The position numbers and the translations under genes are program-made. This document shows positions 676 through 60,933 of a stretch of 64,000 nucleotides of DNA, piece by piece. The stretch's first letter is position 1; every line of letters begins with the position of its first letter. The stretch is from an uncultured Acidobacteriota bacterium (GTDB lineage: Bacteria; Acidobacteriota; Terriglobia; Terriglobales; Acidobacteriaceae). The notes under the pieces were generated by a model that worked only from the letters and a program-made list of their open reading frames with translations, was not told the DNA's origin and did no database searches. The stretch is from positions 122,457 through 186,456 of the forward strand of contig CAVZQL010000009.1 of assembly GCA_963777415.1 (NCBI GenBank), given 5' to 3'.

Positions 676-1538
676 TAGCGCGTTGGATGAAGCTCGTCCA
701 TGCTCGGTTCTGGCTCAGCACGCGAGCAATAGTCGGACGAGAGGCGGCAATAAGACTACTCGGATCGCGCGCCCTTTGTGGGAGGGCGCCGGACGGCACC
801 GATGCTGCATATGATTTGATCTATCCCATTTATGACCCCGTGCTTGAAATGGTGCAACCGGACGAACGCCCCGTGTGCTTCCGTGCGATGGACTGGAAAT
901 TCTCAGACGGCGGTCGCGAACGGTGGCTGCGCGGCAGTGATGCAGAGAGTTGGAGCAACTACCCCGACATGATCAACGACTTCTGTATTGTCGGGGAAAG
1001 GACCTATCTCATCAGACCAGACTGGGAATGGCCCCGAGAGGAGCGCCTTCGGGGGCTATATGACGGAGATGCTACCCGGCTAGAGAAAACCTGCCTCGCT
1101 AGTGGGCACGAGCTTACGCACAGCATGTACCTGGCAGAAGCGTCCCAAGACGATGAGCAGCTGGTGATTTGCAATTCAGAGCGCCAACTGGTTGGCCCTA
1201 TGCATAGGTGGGCCGCAATCAATAGCAGGTTCGCTCGCTCTTTGGGATGGCGGCCTTCGCCGGCAGCACCCTTGGAATGGATTGATGCAGATGGAACGCC
1301 AATGGTCAAATCCGTATTCTGGCGCGATGGCTGGATTGGTCTGGAGCCGCCACACATGGAACCACTTGGGGAGGGTTGGATTGTGCTGGCCTCGAAATCT
1401 GCTGTTGATGTCATCAAAGACCGGCGTCCAAATTGCAAAGTGCACCTTTGGGTCGAACGTCATTCCCACGGGGACCATCCCTACGAACAGTTCTGGCATT
1501 TGAATGAGCACCTCTCCGAAAAGTTCACTAAGGATTGA
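648..1538 (+). CDS. hypothetical protein, first gene of a two-gene cassette; start uncertain (648, ATG 687 or ATG 849)
   Basis: ORF track, 296 aa. I recognise no motif. The first codons lie in the presumed IS630 terminus. The promoter-like site at 794-809 favours ATG 849 (MVQPDERP...). There is a 44-nt gap to the next ORF on the same strand. Confidence 0.5.
   Translation: MSIYLLDTTLARWMKLVHARFWLSTRAIVGREAAIRLLGSRALCGRAPDGTDAAYDLIYPIYDPVLEMVQPDERPVCFRAMDWKFSDGGRERWLRGSDAESWSNYPDMINDFCIVGERTYLIRPDWEWPREERLRGLYDGDATRLEKTCLASGHELTHSMYLAEASQDDEQLVICNSERQLVGPMHRWAAINSRFARSLGWRPSPAAPLEWIDADGTPMVKSVFWRDGWIGLEPPHMEPLGEGWIVLASKSAVDVIKDRRPNCKVHLWVERHSHGDHPYEQFWHLNEHLSEKFTKD
794..809 (+). promoter_or_regulatory. 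sigma-54-type promoter-like site upstream of ATG 849
   Basis: CGGCACCGATGCTGCA; GG and GC are 12 nt apart (GGCAC-N6-TGCA). Predicted start ~820. No upstream palindrome found. Confidence 0.35.
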
Positions 1539-1582
1539 GCGTTAAGTAAACACATGCCTCGTGTTGGGTTTCGACATGGGGC

Positions 1583-4500
1583 TTGACGAAGAGGCGATAC
1601 TACCATGTGATGGATCAGACAACCGTCAGCCCGATTCCAGCTCTGTCTTCACGCCTGCAGCCGTACGATGTCGGCTACACCCTAGGTTGTATAGGAGCAC
1701 TGCAGCTCGTTCCGCGAAACGCCGATCAGGCGATCAGGATTGAGGCACTTGCACATGCAGCGGCATGCGTCACGGCAATCGCCGGCAAACCTAATATTAG
1801 CGCCGGGCGCTTACGGCTGATTTGTGACTCTCCCGAATTGTCGAGTTACTCGTGGGCGGAAGATCCCTGCGACGAAATGTTTGTCGAGGAGATGTCATTC
1901 TTCGGTGGTTCCTACCGCGTGATGCCTGGCATCACGGAAGCCGCAACCTTCATCTTGCAGCATCTATCAAAGGCGATATTTCTCGGGTCTCGTGTATTCG
2001 CGCCCAGAGAATTCGTGCGCGAAGCCCGGCTTCTCTTGGGAACTGCTCTCATAATCAGTGAAGAGGTCTCTAGGCGAGCCGGGCTGGCGATCGGCACACT
2101 CCCGATTGCCGCGTATCGCGAGCCGATCGTAGTACCGGATTCAGCTACTTTGCAAAGGCTTCTCGCCGCCGTCACGTTTACGGAGCAAGACTTACGCGAG
2201 TTACTTTCGCGCGCCCGTATACCTGTAGATGTTATCAATACGTACGTCCTGAACAGCGGCAGCATTCGTCCGGAGCAATTCAGCCCCGACTCTGCTCCAT
2301 TACTGTCGCGGCCACTAGTGCGTGCTAATGACAATCTGATCGCGGTTTGTCCGTCTTCTTTGCTGGCCGCTGCTCGTCACGCACTTATCTTGCACGCACA
2401 GCGGCGTGGCGTTCTCGATCAGCTGTCAGAACGCTATAACGCTGCTGTTTGGGACACGCTCAAGACTTCTCTGTCGCATGTTCAGCATGAACCAGTTCCG
2501 TTTGCACCTCCACCGGGCCTGTCGTACGCAGGTTGGAGGGAAGGTCTCTTTCGTTTCGATACAGACAAGCTGATGTACACCATCTTGGTGACGGACCCGC
2601 TGACGGACTACTCTCCAGATGCGGTCTTCGGTAACTGGAGCGATCCCCAGCTGCACGAGGCATTACAGGGCAGGATTCTAGAGGTCGAGACGCAGATATA
2701 TGGCTCCCTACCTTGGGTTAATGAGGTGTTGTTCCTAGTCAGCATGCAAGGGGTCGGCCGCGCTGGCGTTCTTGGTTTCAGCGAGCTGCCGCGCTACTCC
2801 GAACTCCTTGCCGGTTCTGCAGCACACATAGAAACAATGACGCTGGCCGAAGGGGGCGAGCCCCTCGCCCTGTGGAAGTACGCGCAAGCGCGTCGCATAC
2901 TGCGGGATCGTGCGCGTGTAGTGGTTACTTCTGAGGTGGACGAGTTCCAAATGTACCGATCACACAAGCACTCGTTCTACTTCAGCGACGACGTGATGCC
3001 GAATCTGATCTTTATCCCGCCTGGCGAAGGCGGACCTCTGCGTCGAGACGTCGCCGAGAAGCGAGCGTGGCATACCGTGCCTGCCTACGACCGTGGCTAT
3101 TTCCGCAGAGTAACATCCTTGCATGATACGTCTCAAATTCCAATCTATGTTGCTTATCCCCCAGAGTCGAGGCGGGCGGTACTCCTCGAGGGTCTCCCTG
3201 CATACGTTTGGATCATTGCTCCACGCAACTTACCAGAGAACCATGCGTATTTATCCAAGCTCTATGCCCTCATTCTCGACGGCATTGCATATTGGCTATG
3301 GCAGTTCACCCCGTTTTTGCGGCACCGTCTGGAGCCGCTCGCGGGCGAGGTCGTTCGTCTCGATGTGGAATTGGTTCCTGACGCAAAATGGAACGCCGCG
3401 GGCACGGACGAGCAATACACCACTGACGAATTGGCCCAAGCAGTTAAGGTGTCGACTGATCCAGAATTGCGAACGATTTGCGTGAAAGTTACATCGGCCA
3501 TGACTGAGCTACTGGGCACGGCTGACAATCGTGGCGAACGAGAGTTAATGATCCCGATTGTTCGCGCGTTCAACGACATCGTTCCCGAGGAGCGACGTGC
3601 ACTCCTTACCGAAGGAGAACTAGAAATAGCGGCAGACATTTATGCTCCACTTGGACTCAAGAAGATGCTGCTGTTTCTTAAGTCCGAGAACACTCCTCAA
3701 CTTGATCGCCGGGACATCCCTCGCTATCGTCCTGGGCAAGAAGCTGATGTCAACGTTGTATTGGATAGACTCGGTGCACACCTACGTTCTACCCGGCCAG
3801 TCGGCCCAATACTGCCCGAGGAAACCAATGAGGTGATCAAGCACTCAGTTGCATTCTTCATGGCCGAGCTCGAAACCTTGGTCGCTTCACTCTCTCCCAA
3901 GGGGCTCCTTGAGTACTTGATCCGCCAGCATGAAGCGGTGAGCAGGGAGACCGCGTACTCTCGTCTCACACTCCCAACCAGAATCGCTTGCTACGGCTCC
4001 GTCTCCGACATTCGCAACAAGCTGCAAGAGGAGATTCCTGTTCTCTCGAATGCCGCTCTCGCAGGTCGGTTCCTAATTGAGTTTGTGACGGCTGTGCCGG
4101 CCCGAGGCTATCGCCAGATTTCGTTGTCGTGTTTCGATGAGATGCGCGCGCTGGCCTCACACATAGTGAACGACGGGATGTTAAGTGACCTGGTTCACTT
4201 TGAACTCGCAAAGATGAAACTCTCAATCCTCCCCTCTGGACGACTTGGAATTGATGCAGATGAATACAGGTCTGCGATGGACAGCTATTTGGGTGCGTTC
4301 GCGGCCGAGGAAGTGATCAGAAGCCCGCAAAGTTTCTCACTGTCTTGGCGAGACCGATCTGAGAACAAGAGAACAAATTACCTTAACGCACTTGATGCAG
4401 CGACATCTGCGGAATTTGGCACCTCGATTAGCGAACTGTTGGGATTTCTCACCGCGGTAATGAACATCGGATATCAGATCGGACCCGGTGTGTCCGTATT

Positions 4501-5329
4501 GCGCTTCGAAGATCTAATTGCGGAGCTGCGCAGCCAGACTGGGTTTCCCGAGTCGAACGTCAAGCAATACATCGAGCTGTTTTCGCTTGGCCCGCGTACT
4601 CGGTTCTATGACGTGACTCCACCGCACCGCACTGAAGATGTATATCCTTGGCGATTCAATCGTGAGCTGTCGTACCTGAGGCGACCATTGATACGTCGTC
4701 GTCAGATGGATATCGATGAGGTACTTTGGGGTAACAGGCACGTCGAGGATTCAAAGAAGTACCTCTTTCAACTCTGTACATCTGGTCATCTGCGCCCGAG
4801 AACGCCCGAAATGCGTAGGTTTTCCGGAGATACTCATGACCGCCAAGGCGATGCGTTCAATCATGCAGTGGCAGAGTTCTTCCGTTCGCTACCAGGGATG
4901 GGTGTTTGGCCGAAGTTCAAGAAGTTGAAAACACCACATGGCACGTTACGAGCACCGGGCGATATTGACGTGCTTGCTGCTGACCCCAAGCGCGCGTCGA
5001 TATACCCTGTCGAATGCAAGAGCCTGTCTGCTGCCCGCACTCCTTTTGAGCTCGCAACCGAGATGGAGCAACTGCTGGATGGCACGGGAACGCAACGATC
5101 TATGGTCCAGAAGCACATTCTCCGGGTAGAGTGGTGCCAAGAGCACCTACACGAGCTTCTTGGTGTACTGAATCTCGACAGGTCGTTGCGGTGGAAAATC
5201 GTCCCCTATATTGTCGTCGATCAACCTATGGTGACAGTGCATATGAGAAGAAGTCCAATTCCGATTCTCACGTTCAGTGAAATCAAGGAGAGAATGCAGC
5301 AACTTTCAGAGCAGCGTCTGCGTTCATGA
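1583..5329 (+). CDS. large uncharacterised protein (1248 aa) with C-terminal PD-(D/E)xK nuclease-like motif
   Basis: ORF track; TTG at 1583, first ATG at 1610. The C-terminus reads ...AFNHAVAEFF...GDIDVLAADPKRASIYPVECKS... (nt 4958-5020). This fits the D-x(n)-E-x-K core of restriction-endonuclease-fold/NERD-like domains. No Walker A, DEAD/DExH or other familiar motif seen in the first ~1100 residues. Confidence 0.75.
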   Translation: MTKRRYYHVMDQTTVSPIPALSSRLQPYDVGYTLGCIGALQLVPRNADQAIRIEALAHAAACVTAIAGKPNISAGRLRLICDSPELSSYSWAEDPCDEMFVEEMSFFGGSYRVMPGITEAATFILQHLSKAIFLGSRVFAPREFVREARLLLGTALIISEEVSRRAGLAIGTLPIAAYREPIVVPDSATLQRLLAAVTFTEQDLRELLSRARIPVDVINTYVLNSGSIRPEQFSPDSAPLLSRPLVRANDNLIAVCPSSLLAAARHALILHAQRRGVLDQLSERYNAAVWDTLKTSLSHVQHEPVPFAPPPGLSYAGWREGLFRFDTDKLMYTILVTDPLTDYSPDAVFGNWSDPQLHEALQGRILEVETQIYGSLPWVNEVLFLVSMQGVGRAGVLGFSELPRYSELLAGSAAHIETMTLAEGGEPLALWKYAQARRILRDRARVVVTSEVDEFQMYRSHKHSFYFSDDVMPNLIFIPPGEGGPLRRDVAEKRAWHTVPAYDRGYFRRVTSLHDTSQIPIYVAYPPESRRAVLLEGLPAYVWIIAPRNLPENHAYLSKLYALILDGIAYWLWQFTPFLRHRLEPLAGEVVRLDVELVPDAKWNAAGTDEQYTTDELAQAVKVSTDPELRTICVKVTSAMTELLGTADNRGERELMIPIVRAFNDIVPEERRALLTEGELEIAADIYAPLGLKKMLLFLKSENTPQLDRRDIPRYRPGQEADVNVVLDRLGAHLRSTRPVGPILPEETNEVIKHSVAFFMAELETLVASLSPKGLLEYLIRQHEAVSRETAYSRLTLPTRIACYGSVSDIRNKLQEEIPVLSNAALAGRFLIEFVTAVPARGYRQISLSCFDEMRALASHIVNDGMLSDLVHFELAKMKLSILPSGRLGIDADEYRSAMDSYLGAFAAEEVIRSPQSFSLSWRDRSENKRTNYLNALDAATSAEFGTSISELLGFLTAVMNIGYQIGPGVSVLRFEDLIAELRSQTGFPESNVKQYIELFSLGPRTRFYDVTPPHRTEDVYPWRFNRELSYLRRPLIRRRQMDIDEVLWGNRHVEDSKKYLFQLCTSGHLRPRTPEMRRFSGDTHDRQGDAFNHAVAEFFRSLPGMGVWPKFKKLKTPHGTLRAPGDIDVLAADPKRASIYPVECKSLSAARTPFELATEMEQLLDGTGTQRSMVQKHILRVEWCQEHLHELLGVLNLDRSLRWKIVPYIVVDQPMVTVHMRRSPIPILTFSEIKERMQQLSEQRLRS

Positions 5330-5729: not shown

Positions 5730-5747
5730 CCGACCGCCAGTGGGCAG
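5730..5747. promoter_or_regulatory. possible enhancer (UAS) palindrome, weak left half
   Basis: CCGACC-GCCAGT-GGGCAG, 10/12 to CTGCCC-N6-GGGCAG, centred 113 bp upstream of the GG at 5851. Confidence 0.25.
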
Positions 5748-5849
5748 TATGTCCATATACCGGCATCACGATATTAATGCGAAGAACAGGCGCCGCTTGT
5801 AAGCCTCGCTACTGCCGCACCTTGCATGATTCTCTTCCTTTGTTTCATG

Positions 5850-5865
5850 TGGCACATTCCGTGCA
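5850..5865 (+). promoter_or_regulatory. sigma-54-type promoter upstream of the TetR/DksA genes
   Basis: TGGCACATTCCGTGCA (TGGCAC-N5-GTGCA). Predicted start ~5876, leader ~100-160 nt. Confidence 0.6.
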
Positions 5866-6712: not shown

Positions 6713-7129
6713 ATGAACAGACGAACTAGCAACATGACCCGATCCCTGCAACACGAGCATTTGCGTGACAGGCTGCGTCACGAAGGCGCTCATCTGCGCA
6801 GTGCATTGAGCGAGGCAGAAGCTCGCTTGAGACAACTGAATGCAACCGATGTGTCGCAGGCAGACGAAACACTGACCAACTGCGATTTGGAATACCTGAC
6901 CAACGCCTACAACCGGCAACGAGAACGGCTCCAGTCGATAGTAGAAAGCCTGGAGCGAATCGAAGAGGGAACGTTCGGCCTGTGTGTCGGCTGCGATGAG
7001 CCGATCGGGGAGAAGCGACTCAAAGCTATGCCGTCGGCCAGATTCTGCATTTCCTGCCAGGAAGAACTGGAGCAGGGTGCGCGCTACCCGGTCGCGTCGG
7101 GAAATGCGTTACTGTCCAGAACATTTTAG
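6713..7129 (+). CDS. DksA/TraR family C4-type zinc-finger protein
   Basis: C-terminal CVGCDEPIGEKRLKAMPSARFCISC (CxxC-N17-CxxC) preceded by a coiled-coil region, the DksA/TraR architecture. Confidence 0.8.
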   Translation: MNRRTSNMTRSLQHEHLRDRLRHEGAHLRSALSEAEARLRQLNATDVSQADETLTNCDLEYLTNAYNRQRERLQSIVESLERIEEGTFGLCVGCDEPIGEKRLKAMPSARFCISCQEELEQGARYPVASGNALLSRTF

Positions 7130-7700: not shown

Positions 7701-7718
7701 GTGCCCCAACATGGGCAT
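7701..7718. promoter_or_regulatory. putative enhancer (UAS) palindrome
   Basis: GTGCCC-CAACAT-GGGCAT (10/12), 90 bp upstream of the GG at 7799. Confidence 0.6.
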
Positions 7719-7797
7719 CCGCCCTGCGACGGGCGCAGGTTGCGAGCACAGCGTTGTACAAACGTCTGCGTTGGAATGAGTTACGGGAAGAGGCGAG

Positions 7798-7813
7798 TGG
7801 CAGAGCGTATGCA
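7798..7813 (+). promoter_or_regulatory. sigma-54-type promoter of the Spy/CpxP-like gene
   Basis: TGGCAGAGCGTATGCA. Palindrome GTGCCC-CAACAT-GGGCAT is centred 90 bp upstream of the GG. Confidence 0.7.
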
Positions 7814-8591: not shown

Positions 8592-10655
8592 TTAGTAATC
8601 AGCCCTTGTGATGTTTAGGCGCCGCATCTTGTTCTGTAGGGTAGTCCGCTTGAGTCCGAGGCGCTCTGCGGCGCCTCCGTTTCCGGAGATCCGCCCTGAA
8701 GCCGCCTTGAGGGCGGAGACGATGGCCTGGCGCTCGGCGTCATGGAAGCTGGAAACGAGTTCCGCGCCACGCCCACTGGTTTTACTGAGTTCTGACAGCG
8801 GAACATTCAACTCTTCGCCTTGCGTCAGAATGACAGCTCGCTCAACGAAGTTCTCCAATTCGCGAATGTTGCCCGGCCACGGCGCATTTGCCAGTGCTTC
8901 CATCGCATGCTTGGGGATGGACTTGATGCGTTTTTGCATTCGACGGGCCAATCGCGACACGAAGAAATGGACGAGAAGAGGGATATCCTCGCGACGTTCA
9001 CGAAGCGGGGGGATCTCGATAGGGAACACATTCAGCCGGTAGAACAAATCTTCGCGAAACTGGTTCTCACGGATCATCGCGTGAAGGTCACGATGGGTAG
9101 CAGTGATCAAGCGAACGTCAACGCTGATAGTCCTCCCGCTGCCCAGGCGCTCGAACTCTCGTTCCTGCAATGCTCGCAGTAGCTTCGGCTGTAATTCGAG
9201 GCTGATGTCGCCGATCTCGTCCAGGAACAGCGAGCCGTGGTCGGCCAACTCGAAGCGACCACGTTTCTGCATGAGCGCACCGGTGAATGCGCCTTTCTCG
9301 TGGCCAAACAGTTCGCTCTCCACCAGACCGGAAGGAATCGCTGCACAGTTGAGCCTGACGAAAGTTCGGTCTTTTCTGGGACTCAGACTGTGGATCGCAC
9401 GCGCGATCAGTTCCTTTCCGGTGCCGGTCTCGCCGTGGAGCAAGACCGTGGATGAAGTCGGAGCCACGATAGAGATCTGGTCCAGCACTTTGCGCAGCGC
9501 CGCGCTCTTCCCGACGATGTCTTCGAAGTTGTATTCAGAACGGATTTCCGATTCGAGGTACAGGCGCTCTTCTTCAAGGCGGTGTTTGGAGGCGTTCAGT
9601 CGGCCGAACGCGATCGCGTTCTCCATCGACAAAGCGATCTGGCTGCTGATCTGCGACAACAAGTCCAGATCTGCCTGCCGGAAGCTGTCTGGGTGACGAC
9701 TGCCCATGGTGATCACGCCCAGTGGGCCATTAGCCGTCGCAAGCGGAGCTAGTGCGATCGTCCTGATGGATTCAGCTTCCAACGGTTTACGGAACAGCGA
9801 TGGAAGGTTCTCAATACCATCGCTCGACAGAATTTCATGAGTTCGAGCGCGCATCTTTTCCATATCCTCATCGGTGATCTCCGATACGGGTAGGTCGGCG
9901 AGGAACCCCCTGCTGCTGGGGAAGTCCATGCTGGCGCACTCGAGCTTGTTCGATTCCTTGTCGATGATCCAAAAGCCGGTGAAGTCATTGGCGAAGTATT
10001 TTCGCAACGAAGATGAAGCCGAACAAAACAGCTCGTTCATGTCCAACTTCGAAACAACGTAGTTGTTGATCTCGAGAAGCAGCTTGAGGCGATCACGCTC
10101 CTGCGCGAGTTGGCGCTCGTACGCTCCCGCCGTGTCGATGGCGACGGCACTCTCGATGGCAAGCGCGACGTGCGAGGCCATCGAAGTCATCAGTTCCACT
10201 TCTTCGTCCGTGAACCGTCTCTTTTCAGCGCTGCCAAAGACCAAGGCCCCGAGTCTTCTTCGATGGGTCGAGATCGGGAACAAACACATACTTTGCAGTT
10301 CAACCAGAGGCACACGCGACCGCAGCTCTGGGATTTTCAGCAGTTCGCTTCTCGGGTCGTCGATGAATGCCGGCGTCTGCTCGTCGATTGCACGTCCGAG
10401 TGCCGTACCCGAAAGGGTGATTCGGGGGCTTGGGTTCGGGAGATCGGGAAGGTCGGGAGAACCGTCGAATGCGACGATTCGAGCAGAGCCGGACTGTGAC
10501 TCCAGCAGGAGGAGAGCGGCCAGATCAAAAACGATCACCTGGGATAGAAGCTTGCGCAAGCTGTGCAGGACCGCTTCAACGGTCGGTTGCTCTGCTACAG
10601 TGCTGGATACATCAAGTAAAGTCCGGTAGCGTTCTTCGGTTGCGATGGTCATCAT
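8592..10655 (-). CDS. sigma-54-dependent transcriptional activator, GAF-GAF-AAA+-Fis HTH (FhlA-like architecture)
   Basis: [15 protein letters not shown] (Walker A), [15 protein letters not shown] (GAFTGA sigma-54 contact loop), C-terminal [26 protein letters not shown]. About 380 N-terminal residues have two GAF-like regions. Confidence 0.9.
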   Translation of the reverse strand: MMTIATEERYRTLLDVSSTVAEQPTVEAVLHSLRKLLSQVIVFDLAALLLLESQSGSARIVAFDGSPDLPDLPNPSPRITLSGTALGRAIDEQTPAFIDDPRSELLKIPELRSRVPLVELQSMCLFPISTHRRRLGALVFGSAEKRRFTDEEVELMTSMASHVALAIESAVAIDTAGAYERQLAQERDRLKLLLEINNYVVSKLDMNELFCSASSSLRKYFANDFTGFWIIDKESNKLECASMDFPSSRGFLADLPVSEITDEDMEKMRARTHEILSSDGIENLPSLFRKPLEAESIRTIALAPLATANGPLGVITMGSRHPDSFRQADLDLLSQISSQIALSMENAIAFGRLNASKHRLEEERLYLESEIRSEYNFEDIVGKSAALRKVLDQISIVAPTSSTVLLHGETGTGKELIARAIHSLSPRKDRTFVRLNCAAIPSGLVESELFGHEKGAFTGALMQKRGRFELADHGSLFLDEIGDISLELQPKLLRALQEREFERLGSGRTISVDVRLITATHRDLHAMIRENQFREDLFYRLNVFPIEIPPLRERREDIPLLVHFFVSRLARRMQKRIKSIPKHAMEALANAPWPGNIRELENFVERAVILTQGEELNVPLSELSKTSGRGAELVSSFHDAERQAIVSALKAASGRISGNGGAAERLGLKRTTLQNKMRRLNITRADY

Positions 10656-10747: not shown

Positions 10748-11338
10748 TCAGTTGCACACCGCAGCGTAAGCACAGCACTCTACGAGCATCTGACAATACA
10801 TCGATTCCAGGCACTCAAGGGCAGCGCAGTAGGCTGCTTCGACTGCAGTGCTGCTGACGCCCAGCAACAGAGCAGCTCCAAGCAAGGTACACTTTTCGAC
10901 GCCGCACAAGATCAGGGCGAAACGGGAGAGGATATCCAACCGCATCTCAAGCGCGTCGGAATTTTGAATTAAAGAGTCGAGGAGATCGCCAGCAACTTGT
11001 GGATGACATCGATGAGCGCACGTGCGGCGTTCGTAACTGACAGCTAGTTCTGAAATGCGCCATTGCCGGATCTCGATTGCTGACCTGATAGTAGCGACGC
11101 GCGTCCAGCGTATAAGCCCCTTTTGAAGTACCTGGTCTTGTGCGGTCGCGATATCCACGCTTGCGCTGCCGGATGCGTCGATGACGCAAGCCTCTGCCAC
11201 CTCATCATTACCGGTCAGAAATCCAGCAAGCCACCTGAGTTCGTCCCGATACGACTTGAACGCTCCGCTGATTTCTTCTGCTGTGGCTACCTTCGAAAAG
11301 ATCTCGTCTAATCCGACGGTAATGACTTCGGTTTTCAT
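10748..11338 (-). CDS. divergent ECF-type sigma-factor-like protein, paralog 1 (Cys-rich C-terminus)
   Basis: YRDELRWLAGFLTGNDEVAEACVIDA resembles ECF region 2.1/2.2. WTRVATIRSAIEIRQ resembles region 2.3/2.4. RLDILSRFALILCGVEKCTLLGAALLLGVSSTAVEAAYCAALECL resembles the region 4 HTH. Clear paralogs at 47422-48012 and 57658-58239. Confidence 0.55.
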   Translation of the reverse strand: MKTEVITVGLDEIFSKVATAEEISGAFKSYRDELRWLAGFLTGNDEVAEACVIDASGSASVDIATAQDQVLQKGLIRWTRVATIRSAIEIRQWRISELAVSYERRTCAHRCHPQVAGDLLDSLIQNSDALEMRLDILSRFALILCGVEKCTLLGAALLLGVSSTAVEAAYCAALECLESMYCQMLVECCAYAAVCN

Positions 11339-11364: not shown

Positions 11365-11380
11365 AGCAAAACCAGTGCCA
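11365..11380 (-). promoter_or_regulatory. sigma-54 promoter of ECF-like paralog 1 (and probably the downstream GAF activator gene)
   Basis: The minus strand reads TGGCACTGGTTTTGCT, a full TGGCAC-N5-TTGC consensus. Predicted start ~16 nt before ATG 11338. Confidence 0.8.
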
Positions 11381-11453: not shown

Positions 11454-11471
11454 CTGCCCATATGCAGGCAC
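11454..11471. promoter_or_regulatory. putative enhancer (UAS) palindrome
   Basis: CTGCCC-ATATGC-AGGCAC (10/12), 84 bp upstream of the minus-strand GG at 11378-11379. A second CTGCCCA copy lies immediately 5-prime (11446-11452). Confidence 0.5.
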
Positions 11472-11645
11472 CACAGTCTCCGAGAACGGATTGACGACCT
11501 CTGCGCATTGTCAAACAGTGGCGCGGTCAGGCTTCTTCCTTCAGGAGAGTGCCCTTTTACAGGCAGCGCGCAAGCACGTCCCATGGGCCAGACTGCCCCG
11601 CACCAAGCACTTAAGGCCGCATTGCGGTTCGGTACTCGACGTTGT

Positions 11646-11663
11646 CTGCCCGTATTTCGGCAC
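11646..11663. promoter_or_regulatory. putative enhancer (UAS) palindrome
   Basis: CTGCCC-GTATTT-CGGCAC (10/12), 74 bp upstream of the GG at 11728. Confidence 0.45.
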
Positions 11664-11726: not shown

Positions 11727-11742
11727 TGGCAAGCGATATGCA
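11727..11742 (+). promoter_or_regulatory. sigma-54-type promoter of the TolC-MFP-RND operon
   Basis: TGGCAAGCGATATGCA. Predicted start ~36 nt before ATG 11789 (GAGG RBS in the leader). Confidence 0.65.
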
Positions 11743-13147: not shown

Positions 13148-13148
13148 G

Positions 13149-17881: not shown

Positions 17882-17882
17882 C

Positions 17883-19349: not shown

Positions 19350-19408
19350 CGCGGCGACCAACTTACACAGAAACGAGATTCATTAGTTCCGAAGTGGAGG
19401 CGACACCA

Positions 19409-25580: not shown

Positions 25581-25675
25581 GCACTCCTCAGATGCCTGAA
25601 TGTGGGCAACCGAAGAAGGGCCGGGAGCGCAGAGGCGGCGGTGATTTGGTGTGTTTTATGGGCACTTTCAGCTGA

Positions 25676-38398: not shown

Positions 38399-38490
38399 AA
38401 CCAACTCCCAACTACTCAGGCCAAAACCTACCACCAAGGTGTAATAGACTCGCCTCCCGGCCGGTGCTATTCATTGAACAGGACGGACAA

Positions 38491-47098: not shown

Positions 47099-47114
47099 TG
47101 CATTCGCCACGCCA
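47099..47114 (-). promoter_or_regulatory. sigma-54-type promoter upstream of the TonB-dependent-like receptor gene
   Basis: The minus strand reads TGGCGTGGCGAATGCA. The perfect palindrome CTGCCC-TAAGTA-GGGCAG is centred 93 bp upstream. Leader ~210 nt. Confidence 0.55.
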
Positions 47115-47196
47115 AAACACTCCGTGTAAGAAGCTGCCTGTTTTCAATGCTCTTGCTGTCGCGACCGCTTTCTTTGCCCGCATCGCGGCAGCAAAG

Positions 47197-47214
47197 CTGC
47201 CCTAAGTAGGGCAG
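47197..47214. promoter_or_regulatory. putative enhancer (UAS) palindrome, or hairpin
   Basis: CTGCCC-TAAGTA-GGGCAG (12/12), extended to GCTGCCCTA-AG-TAGGGCAGC. Lies 93 bp upstream of the GG at 47112-47113 and 207 nt downstream of the paralog-2 stop. Confidence 0.6.
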
Positions 47215-49684: not shown

Positions 49685-49702
49685 TTGCCGATATTCAGGC
49701 AC
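49685..49702. promoter_or_regulatory. putative enhancer (UAS) palindrome
   Basis: TTGCCG-ATATTC-AGGCAC (8/12, core TGCC-N8-GGCA intact), 92 bp upstream of the GG at 49601-49602. Confidence 0.4.
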
Positions 49703-50674: not shown

Positions 50675-50692
50675 TTGCCCGAATGTCGGCCA
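50675..50692. promoter_or_regulatory. weak enhancer-like palindrome
   Basis: TTGCCC-GAATGT-CGGCCA (8/12), 85 bp upstream of the GG at 50598-50599. Confidence 0.3.
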
Positions 50693-50759
50693 CGTGCCCG
50701 TCTACTGTCATCAAACTGCTCGTGCAGCGCAACACCGTCGCACGGTTTCGCCATGTTCG

Positions 50760-51178
50760 TTAGCGCTCTTTGTTCCGTTCGGTTTTAAGCTGGAACTCAA
50801 TCAGCGTTTGTTGACCTTCCCTGAGGTCCACCGATTTCGTCAGCACGCTGTAGCCTCTGCTGACGGCAGTTGCCGCACACTCGCCGCTGGTCAAGTGGTC
50901 CAACTGAAACACGCCTTCTTCATCTGTGACTGTCGAGCGCGTGTTGGATGATCGATCAAAGCATTCGAGCTCTATCCGCGCGCCCGGCAACTGGATACGT
51001 TCTCCGGAGGACGAGAGGCCGACGACGGTGCCCTGACGCTTGCTGCGGCAGTTTCACAACGAGAGGGGAAACAGTAGAAGAGAAGAATAAGCGCGGTGAT
51101 GCCGATACATCGCCAACCGGGGGCGAAGATGCCATGCAAGACTGCTCGCCATGCCACATCAACTTTAGGCGGCCTCAT
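50760..51178 (-). pseudogene. small CarboxypepD_reg-domain protein split by a 1-nt frameshift (pseudogene, assembly error or recoding)
   Basis: One frame gives MRPPKVDVAWRAVLHGIFAPGWRCIGITALILLFYCFPSRCETAAAS (signal-peptide-like; ATGA overlap with the upstream gene stop at 51175-51178). Another frame continues QGTVVGLSSSGERIQLPGARIELECFDRSSNTRSTVTDEEGVFQLDHLTSGECAATAVSRGYS... The switch lies near 51040-51050. Confidence 0.55.
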
Positions 51179-52104: not shown

Positions 52105-52120
52105 TGCAACCGAACCGCCA
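52105..52120 (-). promoter_or_regulatory. sigma-54-type promoter of NTP-transferase gene 51175-51972
   Basis: The minus strand reads TGGCGGTTCGGTTGCA. The shared palindrome is centred 88 bp upstream. Confidence 0.6.
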
Positions 52121-52197: not shown

Positions 52198-52215
52198 CTG
52201 CCGCAATGAAGGCAG
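52198..52215. promoter_or_regulatory. putative enhancer (UAS) palindrome shared by divergent promoters
   Basis: CTGCCG-CAATGA-AGGCAG (10/12), 88 bp from the minus-strand GG (52118-52119) and 98 bp from the plus-strand GG (52304-52305). Confidence 0.55.
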
Positions 52216-52302
52216 TTGCCGGGATTCGGGCAAAGTTCCCCGCGCTTCGCCAGGAATCGGTCATTTTCCCGGCACAACTCGCGTGCATTAAGCCATTTCG
52301 GT

Positions 52303-52318
52303 TGGCAGGTGAATTGCG
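52303..52318 (+). promoter_or_regulatory. sigma-54-type promoter of the LolA-like gene
   Basis: TGGCAGGTGAATTGCG. The shared palindrome is centred 98 bp upstream. Leader ~69 nt. Confidence 0.65.
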
Positions 52319-52397: not shown

Positions 52398-53147
52398 ATG
52401 CCTACAAAGCCAGGTTCATCAATTTTCAGTGCATGTCTTCTTCTTGCACTGTTTCACTTCGTAGTTCCTGTTATTGGAAACGCCCAGGAGCCGGCGCGAT
52501 TAACCGTCGATGAAATTGTCGGGCGCATGATCGCTATGGACGCTCAGCGCGCCGCAAAGAACCAGGGCTACCACGGTGTCCGTCACTACACCGTTGACTA
52601 TAAGGGCTTCCCGGGCGACAAACACGCCGAGATGGTGGTCAACGTCGTTGCCACCCAGAACCACAAGGAGTTCACGACCGTCTCCCAAAGTGGATCGCAG
52701 TTCCTGCTCAATCGGGTCGTCCGCAAGCTCCTCGATAGCGAAAGCGAAGCCGCCGATAGCAAGAATCGACGCGAAGTGAAGCTCACTCCCGAAAATTATG
52801 ACTTCTCCCTGCTCGGAACCGAGAACGTACAGAACCGCCGCTGTTACGTCCTGGAAGTGAAGCCCAAGCGAGACAACAAGTTTCTTTACAAGGGCAAAGT
52901 GTGGATCGACGCCGAAGAGTTCGCCGTTATGCAGATTTCGGCCAAGCCCTCCAAGAATCCATCCTTCTGGATCTCATCCGTCGAGATCGAGCACCAGTAC
53001 GAGAAAGTTGGAGATCTTTGGTTGCCTCGCAGCAATCAATCCACTTCGAAGGTTAAGTTAGGTGGCCACGCGCTACTGACCATCGACTACCAGAAGTACG
53101 AGCTCACAGATTCTAAAACCGTCGCAGAAGCTATCCAGAACCAATGA
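52398..53147 (+). CDS. LolA-like outer-membrane lipoprotein-sorting-type protein
   Basis: Signal peptide; YVLEVKPKRDNKFLYKGKVWIDAEEFAVMQI...WLPRSNQ pattern as in LolA_like family proteins (recognition from memory, moderate). Confidence 0.55.
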   Translation: MPTKPGSSIFSACLLLALFHFVVPVIGNAQEPARLTVDEIVGRMIAMDAQRAAKNQGYHGVRHYTVDYKGFPGDKHAEMVVNVVATQNHKEFTTVSQSGSQFLLNRVVRKLLDSESEAADSKNRREVKLTPENYDFSLLGTENVQNRRCYVLEVKPKRDNKFLYKGKVWIDAEEFAVMQISAKPSKNPSFWISSVEIEHQYEKVGDLWLPRSNQSTSKVKLGGHALLTIDYQKYELTDSKTVAEAIQNQ

Positions 53148-53437: not shown

Positions 53438-53484
53438 AACCTCCCTTTGACTATATTGAGCCGCTCAATCTACGGCATGCTTAC

Positions 53485-53516
53485 TTTGAAACCTTGAAAC
53501 TTTGAAACCTTGAGAC
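53485..53516. repeat. 4 x 8-bp tandem repeat upstream of the DUF2934 gene
   Basis: TTTGAAAC CTTGAAAC TTTGAAAC CTTGAGAC, 48-80 bp upstream of ATG 53437 (minus-strand gene). Confidence 0.8.
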
Positions 53517-53862
53517 CTGCAGGAATGCACTCGGCGCATCTGACGGAGGCGGGGTGGCAGACTGTCGCTCACCCGTATTTGGCTTATGCGCCGAGTGCAA
53601 ACAGGTCCGCGAACAAGACGATCACGAACCAACTCGAAATTCGATTTCTTAAATTCGCTTCCACGAAACCGGCGGCTCCGAACATGATTCCCTGTCCTAT
53701 ATCAGTGCTATACGTTCCCACCCGATTGGGTCGCCCGTCTGCGATCGCTCCCGGGGGAGACGGAAATTCACCTCGAAAGCGGTCGCAGACTGCCAAGCGA
53801 ACCGGTGCTCCCGGGGACAAACCCGCTCGGCTCGCTACCGGGACAACACCGCACTCTGTCAA

Positions 53863-53878
53863 TGCAGCTCTCGTGCCA
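53863..53878 (-). promoter_or_regulatory. orphan sigma-54-type promoter in a gene-poor 550-bp gap
   Basis: The minus strand reads TGGCACGAGAGCTGCA. The next annotated minus-strand start (53437) is ~415 nt downstream. Confidence 0.55.
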
Positions 53879-53939: not shown

Positions 53940-53957
53940 GCGCCCAAATGCAGGCAG
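53940..53957. promoter_or_regulatory. weak enhancer-like palindrome
   Basis: GCGCCC-AAATGC-AGGCAG (9/12), 72 bp upstream of the orphan promoter GG at 53876-53877. Confidence 0.25.
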
Positions 53958-53994
53958 GTGTCAGACTGTGGGCACCGGGTAAGCCGCTTGGGCC

Positions 53995-56998: not shown

Positions 56999-57014
56999 TG
57001 CACGAGAGTTGCCA
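56999..57014 (-). promoter_or_regulatory. sigma-54-like site immediately upstream of glgX
   Basis: The minus strand reads TGGCAACTCTCGTGCA. The sequence match is good and a palindrome lies 83 bp upstream, but the predicted start is only ~2 nt before GTG 56986. Confidence 0.35.
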
Positions 57015-57086: not shown

Positions 57087-57104
57087 CTGCCATCATGCGG
57101 GCAT
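57087..57104. promoter_or_regulatory. putative enhancer (UAS) palindrome shared by divergent promoters
   Basis: CTGCCA-TCATGC-GGGCAT (10/12), 92 bp from the plus-strand GG (57187-57188) and 83 bp from the minus-strand GG (57012-57013). Confidence 0.55.
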
Positions 57105-57185
57105 CTCGCCCGTTCTTGGGCACTAACCGCGGCTTCGCCGGCGACCAAGTCCCATTGCCACAAGCAGTTGTGATCCCTCGCCCTT

Positions 57186-57201
57186 GGGCATTCTACGTGC
57201 A
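57186..57201 (+). promoter_or_regulatory. sigma-54-type promoter of the zinc-ribbon ORF / ECF-like paralog 3
   Basis: GGGCATTCTACGTGCA. Palindrome CTGCCA-TCATGC-GGGCAT is centred 92 bp upstream. Leader ~50 nt. Confidence 0.55.
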
Positions 57202-57261: not shown

Positions 57262-57471
57262 ATGAAAAGTCTAACGAAGGTAGTCGATTACTTGTTCGGG
57301 TGTCATCACGAACATCTCAGTCGTGTATTCACGATCAACAAGCGCAGTTATCGCGTCTGCTGTGATTGCGGCGCAAACTTCGATTTTTCGCTGATCACAA
57401 TGAAAACGCGCTCTGACGCTCGTGACCGCAGCGCCGCGTTCCAGTCGAACGCGCAGCTGAAGGCTGTTTGA
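57262..57471 (+). CDS. small Cys/His-rich (zinc-ribbon-like) hypothetical protein
   Basis: GCHHEH...YRVCCDCG gives CHH plus CxxC ligands. Promoter-like site 50 nt upstream. Precedes ECF-like paralog 3. Confidence 0.45.
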   Translation: MKSLTKVVDYLFGCHHEHLSRVFTINKRSYRVCCDCGANFDFSLITMKTRSDARDRSAAFQSNAQLKAV

Positions 57472-57657
57472 GCCGAACGCTGAAGGCATGAGGGCGATCA
57501 CTCTCAACACGAAGTTTACCCATGCGGGCCCTCGTCGTACTTGGACTCGTCGAAGGTCCGCATCGGCGCACGGGCCGACTGATCGCAATCAACGAGGGTG
57601 CGGACACCCCACCGCATCCTGGCCCGTGCCAAATCTGGACAGAAGAGGGCCCCGACA

Positions 57658-58239
57658 ATGAGACCGTTTTTTTTGAAAGCGCAGCGAAATCCGATCCTGA
57701 ACACCCAGCGCGCGACGCCGGAACAACTTCATAACGTCTTCATAGATCATCGACAAGATCTCTACTGGCTGGCCTTGTTCTTGACCGGCGATGAAATTAC
57801 GGCCGAGGCCTGCATCGTCGATGCCTGTGCCCTCGCGACGACCGGCAATAAGGTATTCGCAGAATGGCTTGAGCACTGGGCTCGCAGGTCCACCGTGCGT
57901 TCGGCGATCGACACACAGAAGGGGAGGATCGCCCAGCTCGCGGCTTCCTACGAGCGCCGCCCCTGCTCTCATCGTGACCACCAGCCGTTAGCGCCGGAGA
58001 GCATCACGCTCCTTCGGGACAGCGGTCTCGCTCCTCTTCGCATGGACGCTCTCTGCCGGTTCGCAATCGTCCTACGCGGAATCGAAGGCTATTCCGCTCA
58101 CGAATCCGCCCTGTTGCTGAACATAAGCAGAGCCGTATTCGACGCCGCCTATTGTGCAGCAATGGACACGCTCACGATCTTCCTTGGTGCCGCCCAAGCC
58201 CAACCGGGAGAGGCGGCACTATGCGCCATGACGTGCTGA
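57658..58239 (+). CDS. divergent ECF-type sigma-factor-like protein, paralog 3
   Basis: HRQDLYWLALFLTGDEITAEACIVDACALA / WARRSTVRSAIDTQK / YERRPCSHRDHQP / MDALCRFAIVLRGIEGYSAHESALLLNISRAVFDAAYCAAMDTL. ATG 57658 gives the same length (~193 aa) as the paralogs. Confidence 0.55.
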   Translation: MRPFFLKAQRNPILNTQRATPEQLHNVFIDHRQDLYWLALFLTGDEITAEACIVDACALATTGNKVFAEWLEHWARRSTVRSAIDTQKGRIAQLAASYERRPCSHRDHQPLAPESITLLRDSGLAPLRMDALCRFAIVLRGIEGYSAHESALLLNISRAVFDAAYCAAMDTLTIFLGAAQAQPGEAALCAMTC

Positions 58240-59722: not shown

Positions 59723-59738
59723 AGCACTTGGATTTCCA
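59723..59738 (-). promoter_or_regulatory. sigma-54-like site of the pseudo-receiver gene
   Basis: The minus strand reads TGGAAATCCAAGTGCT (weak -24). The perfect palindrome CTGCCC-GCGGAT-GGGCAG is centred 90 bp upstream. Confidence 0.45.
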
Positions 59739-59817
59739 ATGCCCATCCCACGCAAGTTGCTGGATTCAAAGCACACACTCGCTGCACGAGCGCGCCGGCC
59801 CTGACTTCATCTTGGCA

Positions 59818-59835
59818 CTGCCCGCGGATGGGCAG
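59818..59835. promoter_or_regulatory. putative enhancer (UAS) palindrome
   Basis: CTGCCC-GCGGAT-GGGCAG (12/12; extended CACTGCCC/GGGCAGTG), 90 bp upstream of the GG at 59736-59737. Confidence 0.6.
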
Positions 59836-59873: not shown

Positions 59874-60227
59874 CTAATGAACTGTGTGGCTGCGGTGCGC
59901 CGTCCTCACTTCCATCGGCGCAATGGGATGCGTGCGAGCGGGTTCGCCCAGTAGAGCGAGTTGCAGCCGCTCGCAGAGATGCCGCGCGTAGGAGCTCTCC
60001 GCAATGAACGTCGCTCCAATGCGCTTCAACCAATGCAACGCCGCCTCGCCCGCCGAATCGGCGAAGGTTACTTCCGACAGATCCACTACCAGATTTGAAC
60101 TGATATTCCTGGTCGCGAGCAGTTGGATCGTTTCCTCCGCAAAAGAACCGACGAATCGACCCTCTATGCGCATAGTGAGGTCATTGGGCCGTTCCTCAAA
60201 GCTGATACGAAACATTCTGATCTCCAT
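59874..60227 (-). CDS. STAS-domain protein (anti-sigma-antagonist fold)
   Basis: LTMRIEGRFVGSFAEE...NLVVDLSEVTFADSAGEAALHWLKRIGATFIAES. Confidence 0.7.
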   Translation of the reverse strand: MEIRMFRISFEERPNDLTMRIEGRFVGSFAEETIQLLATRNISSNLVVDLSEVTFADSAGEAALHWLKRIGATFIAESSYARHLCERLQLALLGEPARTHPIAPMEVRTAHRSHTVH

Positions 60228-60274: not shown

Positions 60275-60513
60275 ACGGAAATCATTGATAACACTCGACT
60301 CGCAAGGAGCAGGTCGTCCTCCGGCGGGCACGTCGCCCGCCGATGGTCAATGGATCTCTAGCGTGGCGTACCGTACGTAGACCTGGAGAAAAGTGCGGGC
60401 ACCGTTAAGCGGCGCCCGCTGAGCAACGTGAGTAGCGGGTTGTGGAAGATTCAAGAGCGGTAGTTGCGGTTTGTGAAAACAGGAGATTCAAGCGGTAGCT
60501 GTGGTCTCGCTCC

Positions 60514-60876
60514 TCACGCTGCATTTGCGAACGAAATCTGATCTATGCTCCGGACGATCGCGGGCCGAGAGGCTGAAGTGATCGGCACCACAGGCGCCGG
60601 CTGAGAACCACCTATCGGTGCCGCTAATCGCCGCGGCAGACCCATGACGCGCTCCCACCGTCGCCAGAAGTAATCGGCAACCCGCGGAGTTGCGGCGGAC
60701 AGCTCCGCTGCATTTCGCCACTCGATTGCTGCGGTGTACTGGAAGCCATTGCGCTCATCGCGCTCGGCGGCGCAGCCGTAATGAAGAGCCTTCGCGGCAA
60801 CAACGACATGCGACAACCACCATGCTGTGATGGCTGTGATTGCTGGGTTCCTCTTGTTGTTGTTGCCGCTTGTCAT
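60514..60876 (-). CDS. hypothetical protein (120 aa)
   Basis: ATG 60876 (MTSGNNNK) is preceded by GAGGAGAAGGG and lies ~31 nt after a strong sigma-54-type promoter at 60918-60933. No motif recognised. Confidence 0.5.
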   Translation of the reverse strand: MTSGNNNKRNPAITAITAWWLSHVVVAAKALHYGCAAERDERNGFQYTAAIEWRNAAELSAATPRVADYFWRRWERVMGLPRRLAAPIGGSQPAPVVPITSASRPAIVRSIDQISFANAA

Positions 60877-60917
60877 TGCCCTTCTCCTCGTTTTCAGCCT
60901 CGTACGCACATAGGTAG

Positions 60918-60933
60918 AGCAAGGGCAATGCCA
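60918..60933 (-). promoter_or_regulatory. sigma-54 promoter of hypothetical gene 60514-60876
   Basis: The minus strand reads TGGCATTGCCCTTGCT (TGGCA-N6-TTGCT). Palindrome CTGCCC-GTCGAT-GGGCAT is centred 101 bp upstream. Confidence 0.7.

Follow-up and report, generated by a model that had tools for sequence, protein, structure and literature searches.

About 20 sigma-54-type promoters with a shared upstream palindrome suggest one large regulon in a 64-kb stretch of a Terriglobia genome

Known Sigma-54 Systems and the Present Locus

Canonical sigma-54 (RpoN) promoters have an invariant GG and GC 12 nt apart, with TGGCA at −24 and TGC at −12; they lie upstream of, and co-oriented with, their genes, and an activator site is found ∼100 bp further upstream. 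The consensus was reportedly given by Barrios et al. in 1999 as TGGCAC-N5-TTGCW. Here, we analyze a 64,000-nt stretch of DNA (the window) from an uncultured Acidobacteriota bacterium of the class Terriglobia (assembly GCA_963777415.1, contig CAVZQL010000009.1, positions 122,457 to 186,456), in which ∼20 predicted promoters have these properties and share a 16-bp palindrome upstream. Unlike the canonical set, they have a −12 element that reads TGCA rather than TTGCW, and their density is about one per 3 kb. We consider it highly likely that they form one large regulon run by a conserved activator. The promoters themselves are ordinary members of the sigma-54 class; what is unusual is their density and uniformity.

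Several described systems resemble parts of this one. Like FhlA, the formate hydrogenlyase activator of Escherichia coli, an activator encoded in the window has a GAF-GAF-AAA+-HTH (helix-turn-helix) architecture, and it matches the FhlA profile (NCBIfam NF011958) over its full length at 540 bits, below the equivalog cut-off of 830. Its orthologs carry the Joint Genome Institute (JGI) label "formate hydrogenlyase transcriptional activator." It is not an FhlA equivalog, however: there are no formate or hydrogenase genes among its predicted targets, and the regulon would be far larger than that of FhlA and devoted to envelope and stress. ZraR is a response regulator and PspF has no sensor domain; both control few promoters. 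Like ZraSR/ZraP and PspF, the window system would place periplasmic and envelope protection genes under a sigma-54 activator, including an LTXXQ protein (the ZraP/Spy/CpxP family), and among solved structures, ZraR (1ojl) best matches the AAA+-HTH portion of the activator. Unlike ZraR and PspF, it joins a GAF-GAF sensor protein and a response-regulator (REC) paralog with the same DNA-binding helix to ∼20 promoters in 64 kb.

Larger sigma-54 networks have also been described. Desulfovibrio vulgaris, noted for its many activators, has 87 sigma-54 operons genome-wide (64 with predicted activator sites and 23 without) in 36 regulons (PMC4641369), compared with ∼20 promoters of one enhancer type in the 64 kb studied here. 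CbrB of Pseudomonas has a regulon of at least 61 genes (PMC6296734). As in the global NtrC and CbrB regulons, one activator and one site type would serve many sigma-54 promoters of varied function. Those regulons are scattered over the genome and serve nitrogen and carbon metabolism, whereas this one is locally dense, is built of envelope, efflux, and stress genes, belongs to uncultured Terriglobia, and fixes its palindrome at a small number of distances (72/90 bp, or ∼10 bp more). Such a gene content is in line with an earlier suggestion of sigma-54 as the regulator of the cell exterior (PMC3162934). Terriglobia rank with the most abundant bacteria of soil, and hardly any work has dealt with how they regulate their genes: the searchable full-text literature yielded no account of sigma-54 regulons, enhancer-binding proteins, or promoter motifs in Acidobacteria and no description of this regulon, its enhancer, its activator, or its density. 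The main text of Francke et al. 2011 does not mention Acidobacteria.

A −24/−12 Motif Enriched at One Spacing

A first-pass annotation of the window had proposed a dense set of sigma-54 promoters and listed 21 16-mers. All coordinates and strands were correct, and GG and GC are exactly 12 nt apart in 21 of 21. A loose count of TGGCACN5TTGCW (at most two mismatches) over the whole window gave 44 matches vs. 34 ± 5.6 in shuffled sequence, which is no enrichment. This count is uninformative, and we therefore separated coding from intergenic DNA, where the signal emerges. The gene map, conservative longest open reading frames (ORFs) checked with Pfam, left 7.6 kb of non-coding and 56.4 kb of coding DNA. 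Intergenic counts of TGGCA-N(k)-TGC for k = 2 to 12 were 0, 1, 0, 0, 0, 10, 0, 0, 0, 1, and 0 (10 at k = 7), and the coding counts were 1, 2, 1, 3, 5, 4, 4, 3, 1, 1, and 3 (4 at k = 7, no excess). The excess is thus limited to one spacing and to intergenic DNA.

We ranked individual sites with an approximate sigma-54 weight matrix, whose frequencies approximate those of the published consensus and which serves for ranking only. Scanned against shuffled intergenic DNA and coding DNA, as the annotation had suggested, the window showed an intergenic excess among high scorers: 8 intergenic sites reached 12.5 bits vs. a mean of 0.54 in 500 shuffles (maximum 4), and 17 reached 9 bits vs. 4.7 (maximum 12). 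The eight top matches are all intergenic and all face a co-directional start codon; ranks 9 and 10 (29898(-) and 7798(+)) lie within the 5′ ends of over-long same-strand ORFs. Below ∼12 bits, matrix matches are as frequent in coding as in intergenic DNA, so the weaker sites cannot be judged from the −24/−12 motif alone; they are rescued by an independent palindrome upstream. The promoter consensus of this lineage is tTGGCAc-N6-TGCA. The T at −15 of TTGC is not conserved (25% T in the window), −11 is mostly A, and the −12 element reads TGCA.

A Shared Palindrome at a Set Distance Upstream

Reading the 220 bp upstream of every listed site revealed a palindrome that the first-pass annotation had not mentioned, and it is a stronger and more informative signal than the −24/−12 motif. 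Its 16-bp consensus, from 14 exact-core sites, is TGCCC-rn-AT-ny-GGGCA; 21 of 28 symmetrised sites have AT at the centre. Counts of TGCC-N(k)-GGCA for k = 0 to 15 in intergenic DNA were 0, 0, 0, 0, 0, 1, 0, 0, 12, 0, 1, 0, 2, 0, 3, and 1 (12 at k = 8), and those in coding DNA were 4, 2, 0, 4, 3, 1, 3, 1, 2, 2, 1, 1, 4, 3, 0, and 3. A palindrome matrix found 20 sites of at least 12 bits vs. 1.5 in shuffles; six of the 20 lay outside the training set, and five of these six are intergenic and adjoin listed promoters. The unbiased evidence is that of the exact-string spacing tests and of external loci.

Palindrome and promoter are coupled geometrically. For 20 of the 21 listed sites, 69-108 bp separate the −24 GG from the centre of the nearest palindrome, which lies upstream. 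Palindromes often form tandem pairs 18-19 bp apart, the second copy, where present, lying ∼18 bp further upstream (at 60259, it is instead 19 bp closer, at 50 bp). A palindrome of at least 9 bits at 60-125 bp precedes 17 of 21 listed sites vs. 1 of 55 other matrix hits of at least 7.5 bits (Fisher p = 2.6e-12), and degenerate palindromes of 6-8 bits occur at three more listed sites. In a matrix-free test with the exact-core palindromes of the window and eight related loci, GG-N10-GC piled up at 70-102 bp, whereas the control dyad GG-N9-GC did not. Measured from the GG, the centres fall at ∼72 and 90 bp on the upstream side or are shifted outward by one helical turn. With transcription predicted to start 12 nt downstream of the GC element's C, the 72- and 90-bp positions correspond to ∼−97 and −115. 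Upstream-activating sequences are expected ∼80-150 bp before the start site, and 20 of 21 sites have a palindrome there. Divergent promoters share palindromes in the pairs 11365/11727, 25466/25767, 30971/31163, 52105/52303, and 56999/57186. We refer to a palindrome with its promoter as a module. Dispersed repeats of the REP/MITE kind were sought and rejected: blastn between modules found only overlaps of divergent promoter pairs, and a repeat search of the window reported only PAS-domain repeats. The modules are not repeat copies, because there is no extended similarity among them.

The spacing- and intergenic-specific enrichment, the co-orientation with genes, the palindrome at a set distance, the conservation in relatives, and the presence of two activators with GAFTGA motifs support the view that 20 of the 21 listed sites are genuine sigma-54 promoters at unusual density. 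The other site, 794(+), is probably a chance match outside the system. The predicted promoters, their palindromes (with centre-to-GG distances), and their likely targets are the following:

5850-5865 (+): promoter, TGGCACATTCCGTGCA, 14.4 bits, intergenic, palindrome 5750 at 94 bp; targets TetR (5973/6036-6695) and DksA/TraR (6713-7129)
5731-5765: tandem palindromes 19 bp apart, 5731 weak and 5750 TGTCCATATACCGGCA (15.6 bits, outside the training set)
7798-7813 (+): promoter, TGGCAGAGCGTATGCA, 13.1 bits, palindromes at 90 and 72 bp; target LTXXQ (Spy/CpxP/ZraP-like) periplasmic protein
7702-7735: tandem palindromes, 7702 TGCCCCAACATGGGCA and 7720 weak
11365-11380 (-): promoter, the best of the window, TGGCACTGGTTTTGCT, 18.2 bits, palindrome 11455 at 84 bp; targets sigma-like protein (11338-10748) and GAF-GAF activator (10655-8592)
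11455-11662: three palindromes, 11455, 11550, and 11647 (20.0, 16.7, and 19.8 bits), common to 11365(-) and 11727(+)
11727-11742 (+): promoter, TGGCAAGCGATATGCA, 14.1 bits, palindrome 11647 at 74 bp; targets OEP-MFP-RND efflux, DegP/HtrA, PFK, and DedA (11789-21159, presumed operon)
25466-25481 (-): promoter, TGGCACATCACCTGCA, 15.4 bits, palindromes 25564/25593 at 92/121 bp; targets glycogen phosphorylase (25395-22894) and probably 22808-21168
25564-25705: palindromes 25564, 25593, and 25690 (12.2, 19.7, and 20.0 bits), common to 25466(-) and 25767(+)
25767-25782 (+): promoter, TGGTATCCGAACTGCA, 10.9 bits, palindrome 25690 at 71 bp; target operon STAS, MlaE/F/D, and auxiliary lipoprotein (25800-29308)
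29898-29913 (-): promoter, CGGCACGACACCTGCA, 13.2 bits, palindrome 29979 at 75 bp; target response regulator
29979-29994: degenerate palindrome, AGCCCTGATACGGTCA, 9.4 bits
30971-30986 (-): promoter, TGGCACTGCAGTTGCT, 16.4 bits, weak palindrome 31085 at 108 bp; target 63-aa ORF (30940-30749)
31085-31100: degenerate palindrome, TGACCATCGCGGGGCA, 8.0 bits, common to 30971(-) and 31163(+)
31163-31178 (+): promoter, TGGCACTCCCTGTGCA, 14.7 bits, palindrome at 72 bp; targets 31209-31853, giant PAS histidine kinase, LuxR response regulator, response regulator, and NtrC-type activator (to 40306, presumed operon)
47099-47114 (-): promoter, TGGCGTGGCGAATGCA, 9.9 bits, tandem palindromes 47175/47198 at 70/93 bp; targets TonB-type outer-membrane protein (46878-44371) and three downstream genes
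47175-47213: tandem palindromes, 15.5 and 17.2 bits
49588-49603 (-): promoter, TGGCAAACATCGTGCT, 11.7 bits, palindrome 49686 at 92 bp; targets radical-SAM protein and 48012-47422
49686-49701: palindrome, TGCCGATATTCAGGCA, 18.9 bits
50585-50600 (-): weak promoter, TGGCAACCGCCGTGCC, 7.6 bits, tandem palindromes 50676/50695 at 85/104 bp; target OmpA-like beta-barrel protein
50676-50710: tandem palindromes, 13.8 and 12.0 bits, both outside the training set
52105-52120 (-): promoter, TGGCGGTTCGGTTGCA, 9.3 bits, palindromes at 88 and 106 bp; target nucleotidyl transferase (51972-51175)
52199-52232: tandem palindromes, 15.9 and 17.6 bits, common to 52105(-) and 52303(+)
52303-52318 (+): promoter, TGGCAGGTGAATTGCG, 12.5 bits, palindromes at 80 and 98 bp; target LolA-like protein (52398-53147)
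53863-53878 (-): promoter, TGGCACGAGAGCTGCA, 16.1 bits, palindromes 53941/53959 at 72/90 bp; a 415-nt leader or unknown transcript follows, then DUF2934 (53437-53252)
53941-53974: tandem palindromes, 14.4 and 10.9 bits, both outside the training set
56999-57014 (-): promoter, TGGCAACTCTCGTGCA, 11.4 bits, palindromes at 83 and 102 bp; targets GlgX/isoamylase (56986-54899) and tandem-Usp protein (54894-53995)
57088-57122: tandem palindromes, 16.9 and 9.3 bits, common to 56999(-) and 57186(+)
57186-57201 (+): promoter, GGGCATTCTACGTGCA, 9.4 bits, palindromes at 92 and 73 bp; targets 69-aa Cys/His ORF (57262-57471) and possibly 57598-58239
59723-59738 (-): promoter, TGGAAATCCAAGTGCT, 8.6 bits, palindromes 59802/59819 at 73/90 bp; target response regulator (59670-59266)
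59802-59834: tandem palindromes, 9.9 and 15.0 bits
60259-60274 (-): promoter, TGGTATGCGGACTGCA, 12.1 bits, only degenerate palindromes at 50 and 69 bp; target STAS-like 117-aa protein (60227-59874)
60315-60349: two degenerate palindromes 19 bp apart, best score 6.0 bits
60918-60933 (-): promoter, TGGCATTGCCCTTGCT, 15.5 bits, palindrome 61025 at 101 bp; target 120-aa ORF
61025-61040: palindrome, TGCCCGTCGATGGGCA, 16.5 bits
794-809 (+): probable chance match, CGGCACCGATGCTGCA, 10.8 bits, inside ORF 648-1538, best upstream palindrome −4.7 bits
38721-38736: orphan palindrome, TGTCTTTATAACGGCA, 13.5 bits, inside response-regulator gene 38464-38868

Besides the orphan at 38721, palindrome 11550-11565, the middle one of the three between 11365 and 11727, has no promoter partner.

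Conservation in Relatives and Soil Metagenomes

A GlgX scan of species-representative genomes yielded 80 loci, 41 of them from Acidobacteriota (758 kb); retrieved loci are designated by L numbers. The nearest relatives in protein identity and gene sharing are four uncultured Acidobacteriota/Terriglobia loci (L069, L071, L065, and L077), with identities of up to 89% for PFK, 82-84% for GlgP, and 85% for AcrB. Across the 41 Acidobacteriota loci, TGGCA-N7-TGC occurs at background level, with no excess at that spacing, so a phylum-wide trait is ruled out. Among the glgX loci, modules occur only in the four nearest. TGCC-N8-GGCA is found 20 times in these four (84 kb) vs. 35 times in the other 1369 kb, where it equals other spacings, and strict modules number 15 in the 64-kb window vs. 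3 in 76 control loci (1.37 Mb).

Modules are kept upstream of orthologs despite different neighbors; this holds for the response regulator, g31209 (31209-31853), STAS-Mla, Usp, and RND. The response-regulator ortholog in L069 has CGGTACAACACCTGCA where the window has CGGCACGACACCTGCA, with tandem palindromes at 72 and 90 bp. Upstream of the 31209-31853 ortholog lies TGGCACGAACTGTGCA (L069:5463), and the TGACC...GGGCA variant of palindrome 31085 is conserved in L069 at 74 bp. The STAS-Mla operon ortholog of L065 has a module at 20531(-), and homologous outer-membrane genes of the OmpA-like protein carry modules in L081 and L090.

Scanning JGI environmental metagenomes with a composite pattern (perfect palindrome, a 60-90 nt gap, and TGGCA-N7-TGC) returned at least 120 soil-metagenome contigs (672 kb); the figures in this paragraph hold among the matches listed. 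The palindrome-GG distance has two sharp modes, 71-74 bp (peak at 72) and 89-92 bp (peak at 90), and a minor register at 79-83 bp is about one helical turn off. There were 251 module promoters, one extra per 5.1 kb of flanking sequence beyond the seeding module. The families downstream agree with those of the window: a STAS-like small protein is the most frequent (41 of 150), and OEP/TolC is second overall and first among Pfam-assigned genes (23-29). Further families are sigma-like paralogs, HlyD, RsbW-like kinase, STAS, LolA-like/DUF4292, M48 protease, OmpA-like, DegP, PFK, and activators.

Candidate Activators

The first-pass annotation had placed two sigma-54 activators in the window, and Pfam domains bore this out, both proteins having GAFTGA:

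8592-10655 (-): enhancer-binding protein, GAF-GAF-Sigma54_activat-HTH_8, GAFTGA at residue 455
38900-40306 (+): enhancer-binding protein, Response_reg-Sigma54_activat-HTH_8, GAFTGA, same DNA-binding helix as 8592-10655

Assemblies of Terriglobales and Acidoferrales contain hundreds of orthologs of the GAF-GAF activator at 69-76% identity. Among orthologs of 60-83% identity, the HTH does not vary, and its helix ends (R/K)L. An ortholog with the invariant helix is encoded on 57 of 120 DNA-pattern contigs (among the matches listed) vs. 0 of 76 control loci. Four orthologs (L081, L083, L084, and L085) have different neighbors in each case, and strong modules lie directly upstream of the activator gene in L081 and just downstream of it in L083, L084, and L085. 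The second activator scores 430 bits against NtrC (TIGR01818), below the equivalog cut-off of 558.6, and on this score is NtrC-type in architecture only. Same-helix pairing recurs outside the window: L069 has adjacent activator genes (13479-16882(-)) encoding a GAF-GAF protein (711 aa) and a 408-aa protein without a recognised sensor domain, both with the signature helix, here ending (M/I)RRL. Other activators in these loci have different helices. We assigned the palindrome to this helix family because of the gene linkage and the helix sequence. The GAF-GAF protein is, we infer, the best candidate to bind the palindrome and act as principal activator; a second input on the same site probably comes from the REC paralog.

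Two further candidates were rejected. An NtrC-type activator as a separate linked family in the metagenome contigs was discarded on finding that all tblastn matches are cross-hits to GAF-GAF orthologs. The orphan palindrome 38721-38736 sits ∼180 bp before the second activator gene; an internal promoter for that gene was dismissed because no GG-N10-GC follows the palindrome.

Weighing the Alternatives

Several points weigh against a single sigma-54 regulon run by this activator. Promoters and start sites are predicted from sequence, and the pairing of activator and palindrome rests on gene linkage and helix conservation. An ORF with an RpoN box is absent from the 64-kb window and from all related loci retrieved, so that sigma-54 itself is implied solely by the GAFTGA activators. 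The sigma-54 matrix is built on approximate consensus frequencies, and the palindrome matrix was trained on window sites, which makes its scores there circular. Some promoters are weak (50585 at 7.6 bits and 59723 at 8.6 bits), and the palindromes at 31085, 29979, and 60315/60334 are degenerate. Two leaders are implausibly short for canonical translation initiation, that of GlgX (2 nt, GTG) and that of STAS (7 nt, ATG). The relatives' loci were all anchored on a regulon gene or motif, which biases density estimates upward, and more distant activator loci have only 2-3 modules per 22 kb.

We give little credence to the possibility that the palindrome is the operator of a regulator other than an enhancer-binding protein (a repressor, a nucleoid protein, or a LuxR/TetR-type regulator), with the true activator bound elsewhere or acting from solution. 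Regulators of such kinds (TetR, LuxR-type, and sigma-like) are among the regulon members, and the palindrome-activator pairing is predicted from sequence. However, tandem, dimer-sized sites at ∼−97/−115 are in the typical enhancer-binding position, the GAF-GAF gene is the most tightly linked feature of the pattern contigs, and its HTH has stayed invariant while the orthologs diverged.

About equally doubtful is a reading in which the promoters are real but divided, as in Desulfovibrio or Myxococcus, among many small, independent regulons with separate activators. The same palindrome stands at the same distance before 17-20 of 21 sites, and both window activators have the same DNA-binding helix, even though the window does encode two different activators, related loci encode some with other helices, and the palindromes of three promoters are all degenerate. 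We noticed no other upstream motif that was enriched, though no systematic search for one was made. A chance or compositional artifact of GC-rich intergenic DNA, or a dispersed repeat, has the flat loose count and the many coding matches of similar score below ∼12 bits in its favor but is already refuted by the single-spacing, intergenic-only spikes of both motifs, the counts above intergenic shuffles, the set coupling of palindrome and promoter, the 15 modules in the window against 3 in the controls, and the dissimilarity of the modules.

Proposed Mechanism and Scope

In the single-regulon model, dimers of the GAF-GAF activator would bind the tandem palindromes (∼−97 and −115) through the HTH_8 helix and assemble into an active AAA+ ring. 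The ring would contact the closed complex of sigma-54 holoenzyme at −24/−12 over a short DNA loop, and ATP hydrolysis through the GAFTGA loops would open the promoter. The palindromes probably serve the REC-type activator as well. The distance is nearly fixed, and its alternative register is displaced by one helical turn; both facts argue that the activator must sit on a particular helix face. The mechanism is canonical, its anatomy that of a textbook sigma-54 promoter and enhancer-binding protein.

A wider and tentative idea, which we regard as possible rather than likely, is that in this lineage helix-sharing activators with varied sensors (GAF-GAF, REC, or none) control several hundred promoters across the genome as one regulon, with a promoter every 3-10 kb or so; this regulon would be a general stress/envelope response and would integrate several signals at one palindrome, placed at a few set positions relative to the promoter. 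It would then be the largest single-enhancer sigma-54 regulon known and would fill the role played elsewhere by RpoS, sigma-B, and EcfG. Should the density hold genome-wide, the picture of sigma-54 as serving small, specialised regulons would change. The promoter consensus, 16-bp enhancer, distances, candidate activator, and recurring target families make up a testable regulatory code. Its uses could include the reannotation of start codons and small ORFs, the interpretation of soil metatranscriptomes, and, in thousands of metagenome-assembled genomes from soil, the prediction of stress, efflux, and envelope genes that are regulated together.

Gene Content of the Proposed Regulon

With co-directional runs taken as operons, ∼20 of 25 transcription units and ∼40 of 50 genes would stand behind a module. 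The regulators among them are TetR, DksA/TraR, a sigma-like protein with the GAF-GAF activator, three response regulators, and the PAS kinase operon ending in the second activator. The other genes encode the LTXXQ protein, OEP-MFP-RND efflux, DegP, PFK, DedA, GlgP, GlgX with Usp, STAS with MlaEFD, and the LolA-like, OmpA-like, TonB-type outer-membrane, STAS-like, radical-SAM, and DUF2934 proteins. The unit behind 47099(-) joins the TonB-type outer-membrane protein to lipid-synthesis genes. Among the functions represented are periplasmic proteases and chaperones, the handling of outer-membrane lipids and lipoproteins, and partner switching. Taken together, efflux, outer membrane, Mla, glycogen breakdown, Usp, STAS, sigma-like regulators, and both activators would belong to a single large sigma-54 regulon, and this content suggests an envelope and general stress or dormancy-exit program in a Terriglobia lineage.

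Three paralogs of ∼200 aa (10748-11338(-), 47422-48012(-), and 57598-58239(+)) each belong to a unit behind a module. Against models of sigma-70 region 4, the PhyR sigma-like domain, and the SigE family, their matches all stay below threshold. Homologs occur downstream of modules in metagenome contigs. The three may be divergent extracytoplasmic function (ECF)-like sigma factors or anti-sigma partners below the sigma-54 layer. The STAS-like protein (59874-60227(-), ∼110 aa) has the consensus MLRVEI...LKLEGRF...VDLTEVTFID...GEEVL, and in the metagenome contigs (L086-L205) its gene is usually divergent from an OEP/TolC efflux operon, beside the activator gene.

Start Codons, Leaders, and Small ORFs

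For most promoters, a start codon lies 16-160 nt downstream, as the first-pass annotation had said, with a ribosome-binding site and, in several cases, a signal peptide at the start of the protein. Exceptions, counted from the predicted start site, are 47099(-) (∼210 nt) and 53863(-) (415 nt). The leader of 11365(-) is predicted at 16 nt and that of 30971(-) at 20 nt, both with a ribosome-binding site, and that of 25466(-) at 60 nt. The very short leaders of GlgX and STAS would mean leaderless or near-leaderless mRNAs or else mis-predicted start sites or start codons.

The promoters also settle the over-long ORFs 7701, 29973, 49899, and 60909, for which the same annotation had anticipated downstream starts. 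The LTXXQ protein of ORF 7701 would begin at ATG 7902, at its signal peptide (MKRWIVSLFLIVVAG), and the response regulator of ORF 29973 at ATG 29820. The 120-aa ORF would begin at ATG 60876 instead of 60909 (31-nt leader with ribosome-binding site), and the radical-SAM protein at 49467 or later instead of 49899; a homolog downstream of a module in L118 has 460 aa. ORF 50618 would likewise begin at ATG 50531, where the OmpA-like protein opens with a signal peptide. One target had been misplaced: rather than a gene 400 nt away, as proposed, 57186(+) would serve an unannotated, Cys/His-rich ORF of 69 aa (57262-57471(+)) with a weak zinc-ribbon match, a good ribosome-binding site, and a 50-nt leader. 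Homologs of this ORF lie downstream of modules in L091, L153, and L161.

After the strong promoter 53863(-), ∼415 nt (53438-53862(-)) contain no convincing ORF and could be a long 5′ untranslated region, a small RNA, or a small protein. No known RNA families or tRNAs were found in the leaders, and 53438-53862(-) has no Rfam match.

Three other features of the window were noted. A 76-aa ORF (50760-50990(-)) consists solely of a CarboxypepD_reg domain; it has a weak orphan palindrome at 51100 and may be what is left of a gene for a TonB-type outer-membrane protein. At the left end of the window (3-620(-) and 648-5329(+)), which is unlike the remainder, a helix-turn-helix transposase-like fragment and ORFs of 296 and 1248 aa, which have no family hits and no modules, may mark an insertion or the regulon boundary. 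The gene for the 1954-aa histidine kinase contains internal direct repeats (34324-37021(+)) of 99-280 nt and 60-80% identity, which correspond to its PAS array.

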